From assembly GCF_001677475.2 (NCBI RefSeq), contig NZ_CP015229.1: a stretch of 64,000 nt of DNA; one strand, 5' to 3'. Below are positions 6,089-6,388 of the stretch, in pieces. The first letter of the stretch is position 1. The number at the start of each line of letters is the position of its first letter. The notes below the pieces were generated by a model that did no database searches, was not told where the DNA came from, and was given only the letters and a program-made list of their open reading frames with translations. This DNA is from Escherichia coli. Its GTDB lineage: Bacteria > Pseudomonadota > Gammaproteobacteria > Enterobacterales > Enterobacteriaceae. The translations under genes and the position numbers were made by a program.

Positions 6089-6388
6089 CTCTTTATTTCA
6101 GGTAATAGCAGGTCCTCAATTTCTCAAAGGAGAAATTGATCACGCCGGAAAAAAAGCAAAACCCACCGCTGATAAATAAATCAGTAGTTTGCTTTTTGCA
6201 GATGCAATAACCCAGACCAGCCCGGTAACTGGCTATACTCGTCATACTTCAAGTTGCATGTGCTGCGACTCGAATTATTTAGAGTTTAAAAGGGTTAGCA
6301 GTATATGAGCACCGAGGGATACAGGTATTAACCTGTAATGCTTAAAGTCAGGGAGACCTGTACGCTGAGGTGCCCTTTAGTCAGAAGA
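6089..6388 (-). promoter_or_regulatory. speF leader region between speFL and speF (site of ornithine-dependent attenuation)
   Basis: Position between the leader ORF and the speF start; role inferred from the described speFL mechanism, not from structure seen here. Confidence 0.45.
6228..6290. repeat. short ERIC/IRU-like intergenic repeat
   Basis: gtcatacttcaagttgcatgtgctgcgactcgaattatttagag matches both arms of the ERIC element at 62598..62722 but lacks its central part. Confidence 0.55.

Follow-up and report, generated by a model that had tools for sequence, protein, structure and literature searches.

The window, as the whole 64,000-nt stretch of E. coli DNA under analysis is called here, carries speF, the gene for the inducible ornithine decarboxylase, on the minus strand at 3881..6079; this start is the one used in RefSeq relatives, and the longest open reading frame reaches 6088. 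Upstream lies the leader peptide gene speFL (6389..6493, minus strand), which encodes MENNNRLMPHIRRTTHIMKFAHRNSFDFHFFNAR according to its translation and to the annotation of RefSeq relatives, and the upstream neighbour is kdpE (6768..7445, minus strand). The region is 99.2% identical over 1 kb to that of E. coli MS 16-3, for which RefSeq gives the minus-strand order potE, speF, speFL (34 codons), a small hypothetical ORF, kdpE and kdpD. Between speFL and speF there is a spacer of 309 nt (6080..6388, minus strand) that forms part of the speF mRNA leader. In the published operon model, ornithine-dependent ribosome stalling on speFL blocks Rho-dependent termination downstream of a hairpin at the speFL 3′ end, and the 257-nt spacer of K-12 has been found experimentally to confer control by ornithine and Rho (bioRxiv 10.1101/604074). 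The spacer of the window contains a 55-bp short-form ERIC at 6234..6288, corresponding to nucleotides 101-155 of the spacer. It is followed directly on its 3′ side in the mRNA by a leader hairpin, GCCAGUUACCGGGCUGG (6216..6233, minus strand), whose stem differs yet stays complementary in other genera (covariation read by eye). The preliminary description had reported an ERIC-like repeat at 6228..6290 in the speF-kdpE intergenic region. That span does enclose the element, which does lie within that gap, but the limits are a few bases too wide and the location too coarse, the element standing between speFL and speF in the mRNA leader. Just downstream of kdpE, at 6681..6754 on the minus strand, a hairpin (AAACCUGCC...GGCAGGUUU) precedes a run of U's, an arrangement that resembles a terminator of kdpE; the same interval gives a weak, sub-threshold Rfam match to STnc370 (26.9 bits, E = 0.39).

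The element reads TATACTCGTCATACTTCAAGTTGCATGTGCTGCG|ACTCGAATTATTTAGAGTTTA, and the deletion junction, CTGCG|ACTCG, falls between 6267 and 6268, where the two arms abut. The left arm (34 nt, 6234..6267) is identical at 34/34 positions to the left arm of the full ERIC that adjoins it in the tandem alleles described below. The right arm (6268..6288) consists of ACTCGAATTATTTAGAGT and an imperfect terminus, TTA, where the consensus has ATA. The only other ERIC copy in the 64-kb window is a diverged full copy at 62599..62724 (plus strand), with about 20 differences from near-consensus copies, which serves as the reference; the short element has the same left-to-right sense and is transcribed from the minus strand in the speF leader. 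Relative to this reference, the 34-nt left arm and 18 nt of the right arm have two mismatches and one mismatch, respectively, and the approximately 72 bp that separate the arms in the full copy are absent. In pattern searches of the window, the 25-nt left-arm core was found at two places only, 6243..6267 and 62608..62632 (23/25, 2 mismatches), and so was the 18-nt right arm, at 6268..6285 and 62704..62721 (17/18, 1 mismatch). An ERIC profile built from nine full copies matches both 6234..6268 (E = 7.8e-5) and 62599..62724 (E = 9e-30). Pairwise alignment of the short and the full copy with MAFFT places the left arm correctly and scatters the right arm; the pattern searches are the better evidence. 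The chance match of a short AT-rich palindrome, which has nothing to recommend it except the short length of the element, is refuted and of negligible probability, given that 52 of the 55 positions agree with the ERIC arms, that none of 100 dinucleotide-preserving shuffles matched the left-arm or the right-arm pattern, and that the full ERIC beside it in tandem alleles has the very same left arm. The earlier claim that both arms of the full ERIC are matched is therefore borne out by pattern searches, shuffles and profile, and comparison with the ERIC family and with the 62.6-kb copy gives the same result. Judged by its arms, the segment at 6234..6288 is to be regarded as a real shortened copy of ERIC, a kind of element that is already known. 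The reference copy itself occupies a divergent intergenic region (60950..63844) between a gene for an RtcB-family RNA ligase (60950..62347, minus strand) and a gene for a LysR-type regulator (62909..63844, plus strand).

Members of the ERIC/IRU/RU-1 family of Enterobacteriaceae count as MITEs: they are imperfect palindromes of 127 bp that have terminal inverted repeats of 7 bp, TA at both ends and a target duplication (PMC2229807 Table 1). Like these, the short element has homologous terminal arms, a palindromic fold, an intergenic, transcribed position and several dispersed copies per genome; with a full ERIC as query, the median number of places matched by megablast in an E. coli genome is 5. 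In contrast to them, it is 55 rather than 127 bp long, it is devoid of the conserved centre, in which the ERIC-PCR primer sites are located, and it ends imperfectly on the right (GAGTTTA for GAGTATA). Because it has neither the length of about 127 bp nor the conserved central inverted repeat, it is a known short variant rather than a canonical ERIC. The primer sequences ERIC1R and ERIC2 were taken from PMC6066780. Their sites fall in the missing centre, one of them matching 62663..62684 with 3 mismatches, and neither primer was found in 6234..6288 in a search allowing up to three mismatches; with its primer sites in the deleted part, the short copy in the speF leader is invisible to ERIC-PCR. 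The ends of the short copy read TA-TAC on the left and GAGTT-TA-A on the right, and the K-12-type empty allele, being about 10% diverged, provides no clean before/after comparison. Short ERIC variants were reportedly ascribed to palindrome-induced deletion by Sharp and Leach (1996, Mol Microbiol 22:1055). The speF copy resembles those variants in the loss of the central palindrome, in endpoints that lie in short direct repeats at its base, and in a junction that recurs elsewhere; nothing substantive sets it apart, and it also adjoins a full ERIC in about 1% of its carriers.

Rfam contains no ERIC family, and a search of it with the element gave only a sub-threshold, partial match to isrH and weak, unrelated ones. 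Positions 159-216 of the isrH model (RF01391) align with the whole short element (6234..6290, minus strand; 24.2 bits, E = 1.5e-4). Identity with the isrH gene was rejected, given the score of 24.2 against a gathering threshold of 45 bits, the coverage of 58 out of 280 model positions and the different locus. Salmonella isrH evidently contains a similar short ERIC-like hairpin, and the RF01391 model can give partial false matches on short ERIC repeats.

In the mRNA sense, a 61-nt region spanning the element is predicted to fold into a hairpin of 16 pairs (-16.1 kcal/mol, z = -3.1); the antisense fold has -15.0 kcal/mol (z = -2.2). The minimum-energy fold of the whole 331-nt leader contains the same hairpin as a branch of its own beside the GCCAGUUACCGGGCUGG hairpin, so that the 16-pair ERIC hairpin would be self-contained and would leave the remainder of the leader undisturbed in its folding. 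A terminator-like site on the plus strand (6252..6270) was rejected, as it represents the ERIC hairpin and a T-rich arm on the non-transcribed strand. That the element is transcribed within the speF leader is inferred from the published operon model. Its position on the minus strand is plain, and, if the timing follows that model, it would be co-transcribed only after the Rho-dependent attenuation decision.

The speF site is polymorphic within E. coli. The short copy of the window type is present in about 3,327 of 5,426 complete genomes, O157:H7 included, and thus in thousands of sequenced strains; 1,701 have the K-12-type empty site, with a spacer of 257 nt, and about 35 have a full ERIC. The latter comprise a full+short tandem in about 33 genomes (approximately 1% of short-copy carriers), one full+short+short arrangement (DCE7) and one full-only allele (NCTC9112), in which the full copy ends in the right terminus of the short copy. 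The full+short allele of CUWW06 lies at 518..727 of comparison locus L002, and further full-ERIC alleles are found at L003, L004 and L005-L007. In all six full-ERIC alleles compared, which represent two flank haplotypes, the full copy is identical. It differs from the ERIC between ybhI and ybhJ at 1 of 127 nt, from the rtcB/yafP copy at 6-7 nt and from the 62.6-kb copy of the window at about 20 nt. The junction between the full and the short copy in the tandem, GAGTA-TA-TACTCG, fits the insertion of a full ERIC into a TA abutting the resident short copy, with duplication of that TA; at least one full ERIC would thus have arrived next to a short copy. According to a review, 14 ERICs that K-12 does not have were catalogued in other strains (PMC10969869).

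Short-only alleles vary around the loop of the hairpin (CATGTG, CAAGTG, CATATG, CCTATG, CTAGTG), and in two cases, CUWW06/O157 and RM14723/FY26, the short copy of the tandem is the short-only variant found on the same left-flank haplotype. This pattern fits an old tandem that repeatedly lost its full copy by recombination between the 34-nt arms; it also fits repeated gain or transfer of the full copy. Identity of the full copies is not improbable under either model, flank divergence being only about 1% (an estimate, P about 0.24). The short copy of the window has the full-copy variant (G) at a polymorphic loop position, and could be an arm recombinant from a tandem or an internal deletion of a full-only allele. 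Recombination between ERIC arms, or slippage, together with at least one arrival of a full ERIC, would account for the alleles seen at the site, whether empty, short, full+short, full+short+short or full.

For the speF leader together with the beginning of speF, E. coli has two haplotypes that are deeply diverged, with a DNA difference of about 10% (window 5900..6900 compared with K-12, L008 4440..4740). Over its first 300 residues, the window-type SpeF shares no more than 93-95% identity with the SpeF of the K-12 type and of 'E. coli' E69. The window-type haplotype also occurs in E. albertii, and megablast with the window as query fails altogether to detect the K-12-type haplotype. A contig assigned to a Collinsella sp. 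MAG (JAIJJM010000551.1; L011, 2.2 kb) contains the speFL-speF leader of K-12-type E. coli, its SpeFL being identical, and is probably a bin contamination.

A 53-nt hairpin of an older type is found at the exact boundaries of the short ERIC in E. albertii (L010 2297..2349), E69 (L009 2300..2352) and MIN10 (L100 ~700..772). It is only about 60% identical to the window element, in flanks that are about 95% identical, and the three versions differ among themselves by 13-26%. Despite this fast divergence in sequence, pairing is kept in these hairpins, with three compensatory pairs. Megablast gave no match to the E69-type element; blastn later found 22 genomes, of which 4 have a related old-type hairpin (MIN10 inspected) and 18 another short-copy variant (2013C-4282 inspected). 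The old-type hairpin is thus present in four E. coli genomes besides E69, and in E. albertii. In MIN10 (E. coli O126:H45) the speFL-speF locus adjoins a transposase fragment, not kdpE, and speFL (MENNNRKMPHIRRVTHIMKFAHRNSFDFHFFNAR) is annotated merely as a hypothetical protein. Its leader looks recombinant, with E. albertii-like sequence upstream of the hairpin and window-like sequence downstream.

The comparison was extended to 80 species and their speF loci. In most of the genera the speFL-speF spacer is empty and about 250 nt long. Full ERICs occur in the spacer at four sites in five species belonging to Citrobacter, Kluyvera and Pluralibacter. The Citrobacter copies (L014 2182..2307, L016 2181..2306) lie in the TA of a hairpin loop; the others are found in two Kluyvera species, at two sites, and in Pluralibacter (L031 2173..2299, L037 2176..2301, L042 2219..2344). 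The site occupied in Kluyvera ascorbata is homologous to the E. coli one, and clean TA duplications accompany the insertions in Kluyvera genomosp. 1 and Citrobacter. All full ERICs in speF leaders have the same orientation relative to speF transcription, and the ERIC profile detected no other ERIC in 470 kb of sequence flanking the 80 speF loci. The orientation bias is suggestive only, as it comprises five events (two-sided p about 0.06 by our own calculation). Leader inserts of about 100-125 bp are also present in Salmonella enterica subsp. diarizonae/arizonae (L019, L022, ~2190..2320), Citrobacter freundii M-21 (L062) and Intestinirhabdus alba (L021). The Salmonella insert begins with an ERIC-like end, CCTAAATAACTCGAATTG, gives no match to the ERIC profile and may be a different small repeat.

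The way in which the short form lost its centre can be read from the junction. At the speF site, full copies read ...GTGCTGCG TCTGCGTTCG...CCTTCCTGCA ACTCGAATT... and the short copy reads ...GTGCTGCG ACTCGAATT...; the missing segment of about 72 bp is enclosed there between two imperfect direct repeats at the foot of the central palindrome, CTGCGTCT to the left and CTGCAACT to the right. REL606 has another short ERIC with this junction, located between an rtcB-like gene and yafP (L089 1501..1557). This locus has three states: a full copy of 127 bp (about 1,650 genomes), a short copy with the same junction (about 2,280 genomes; full or short together 3,932) and an empty site (for instance in ECONIH2 and Nissle 1917). 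In its full copies the 72 bp absent from the short form are flanked by CTGCGACT (left) and CTGCAACT (right), and the short copies of the two loci read CTGCGACT. Full and short alleles have flanks that are 98.9-100% identical, and they have in common a locus-specific arm variant, GTACTGCG, which is not found in the ybhI-ybhJ or speF copies. From this common variant and the near-identical flanks it follows that the short allele at this locus arose in place, the 72 bp having been deleted between CTGCGACT and CTGCAACT. Slipped mispairing at a palindrome would be expected to yield the same deletion, ending at the same junction, at independent loci. The position of the junction and the allelic series at the second locus thus point to slipped mispairing between short imperfect direct repeats (CTGCG.. 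/ CTGCA..) as the most likely route by which the central palindrome of about 72 bp would have been lost. A 9%-diverged haplotype of the rtcB-like/yafP locus (E24377A) also has the short form (loci compared, L089-L093), and this locus, like the region around the reference copy of the window, adjoins an rtcB-family gene.

Full-ERIC alleles also exist at the speF site itself. Together with the shared junction and the rtcB-like/yafP allelic series, they uphold the reading given in the preliminary description, namely that the central part is missing and that the element is a deleted short-form ERIC. What counts against a simple version of this account is that the speF site offers no clean pair of alleles, first full and then short: full copies occur there only beside a short copy or in the single full-only allele of NCTC9112, which, because it carries the right end of the neighbouring short copy, looks derived from a tandem rather than ancestral. 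Moreover, the old-type 53-bp hairpins at the same boundaries in E. albertii, E69 and MIN10 indicate that the short copy goes further back, or has had a more complicated past, than one recent deletion would imply. Taken as a whole, the best explanation, and a probable one, is that the element is an ERIC/IRU shortened by slippage, most likely a tolerated passenger in the speF leader, at a site that is unstable.

A different origin would be a mini-ERIC subfamily, deleted once and spread by transposition as a 55-bp unit, that reached the speF leader already short. Deletion derivatives of MITE families that keep both termini are in general still mobilisable. The occurrence of the same junction at two E. 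coli loci, the similar short form inside the Salmonella isrH model and the related short hairpins that E. albertii, E69 and MIN10 have at exactly the speF site, where they carry no full copy, would all suit such a subfamily. However, the short allele at the rtcB-like/yafP locus has the arm variant and the flanks of the resident full allele, an in-place deletion to the very same junction, and this junction coincides with direct repeats, which predicts its recurrence. In addition, no transposase is known for ERIC, to our knowledge; the observations that bear on its mobilisation consist of presence/absence polymorphism. Spread in short form is thus unlikely, and deletion of an ERIC by slippage is retained as the preferred origin.

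As regards a role in the leader, the deleted ERIC is most likely a passenger that is tolerated and contributes little or nothing to the control of speF, because the K-12 allele with an empty site is fully regulated, because there is no insert in most genera and in a third of the E. coli genomes, and because the site accommodates anything from 0 to about 235 bp of inserted sequence. Since the K-12 leader is regulated in its absence, the element is not needed for regulation by ornithine and Rho. A modulatory effect on the stability or processing of the leader is possible. According to reviews, ERICs that are co-transcribed with genes in Yersinia alter the stability of the mRNA, depending on their orientation, by exposing an RNase E site (PMC2229807, PMC10969869, PMC3184786). 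The remark in the preliminary description that ERICs can affect mRNA stability goes back to this Yersinia work. The speF element resembles the Yersinia ERICs (De Gregorio et al., 2005, via PMC2229807 and PMC10969869) in being co-transcribed with a flanking gene and in forming an RNA hairpin. Unlike it, the Yersinia elements are full-length and mostly located downstream of genes, whereas the speF copy is short and lies in a 5′ leader.

The kept pairing of the hairpins in diverged lineages and the single orientation of the ERICs could hint at a function. On such a view, the element would be a cis-acting hairpin kept by selection, either as a determinant of stability or of RNase E or RNase III processing, or because it modulates, beyond the speFL checkpoint, the pausing of RNA polymerase or the translocation of Rho. 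It would be transcribed within the leader, its predicted hairpin is stable and is retained with three compensatory pairs in the diverged versions, and five independent full-ERIC insertions in other genera share one orientation with the E. coli one; the Yersinia effects on mRNA stability likewise depend on orientation (PMC2229807, PMC10969869). Yet the 1,701 E. coli genomes and the majority of genera that do without the element, the full regulation of the empty K-12 leader and the tolerance of length variants from 0 to about 235 bp do not agree with a selected function, DNA-level processes maintain the pairing of palindromic repeats without any RNA function, and the orientation bias is statistically weak (five events, two-sided p about 0.06). 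Selection for a cis-acting hairpin is therefore improbable, and the passenger status of the deleted ERIC is preferred. A broader proposal, somewhat less doubtful and still tentative, is that ERICs across Enterobacteriaceae land preferentially, and in one orientation, in the speFL-speF spacer, that they have recently been mobile in E. coli, and that inserts could tune speF expression after the ornithine checkpoint.

The element itself is of little consequence, being one more degenerate ERIC copy; only the polymorphism of the speF site and the recurrent same-orientation insertions in speF leaders go beyond expectation. About 60% of sequenced E. coli have a speF leader that is 52 nt longer than that of K-12, and in rare alleles the excess reaches about 235 nt. 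Work on the speFL/speF ornithine sensor uses the K-12 leader, in which the element is absent, and strain differences in speF regulation can be checked against the insert. The two trimorphic loci, the speF leader and rtcB-like/yafP, provide a natural allelic series for palindrome-stimulated deletion and for recombination between repeats. The tandem alleles and the recurrent insertions in one orientation bear on whether ERICs are still mobile, and on where they are tolerated.
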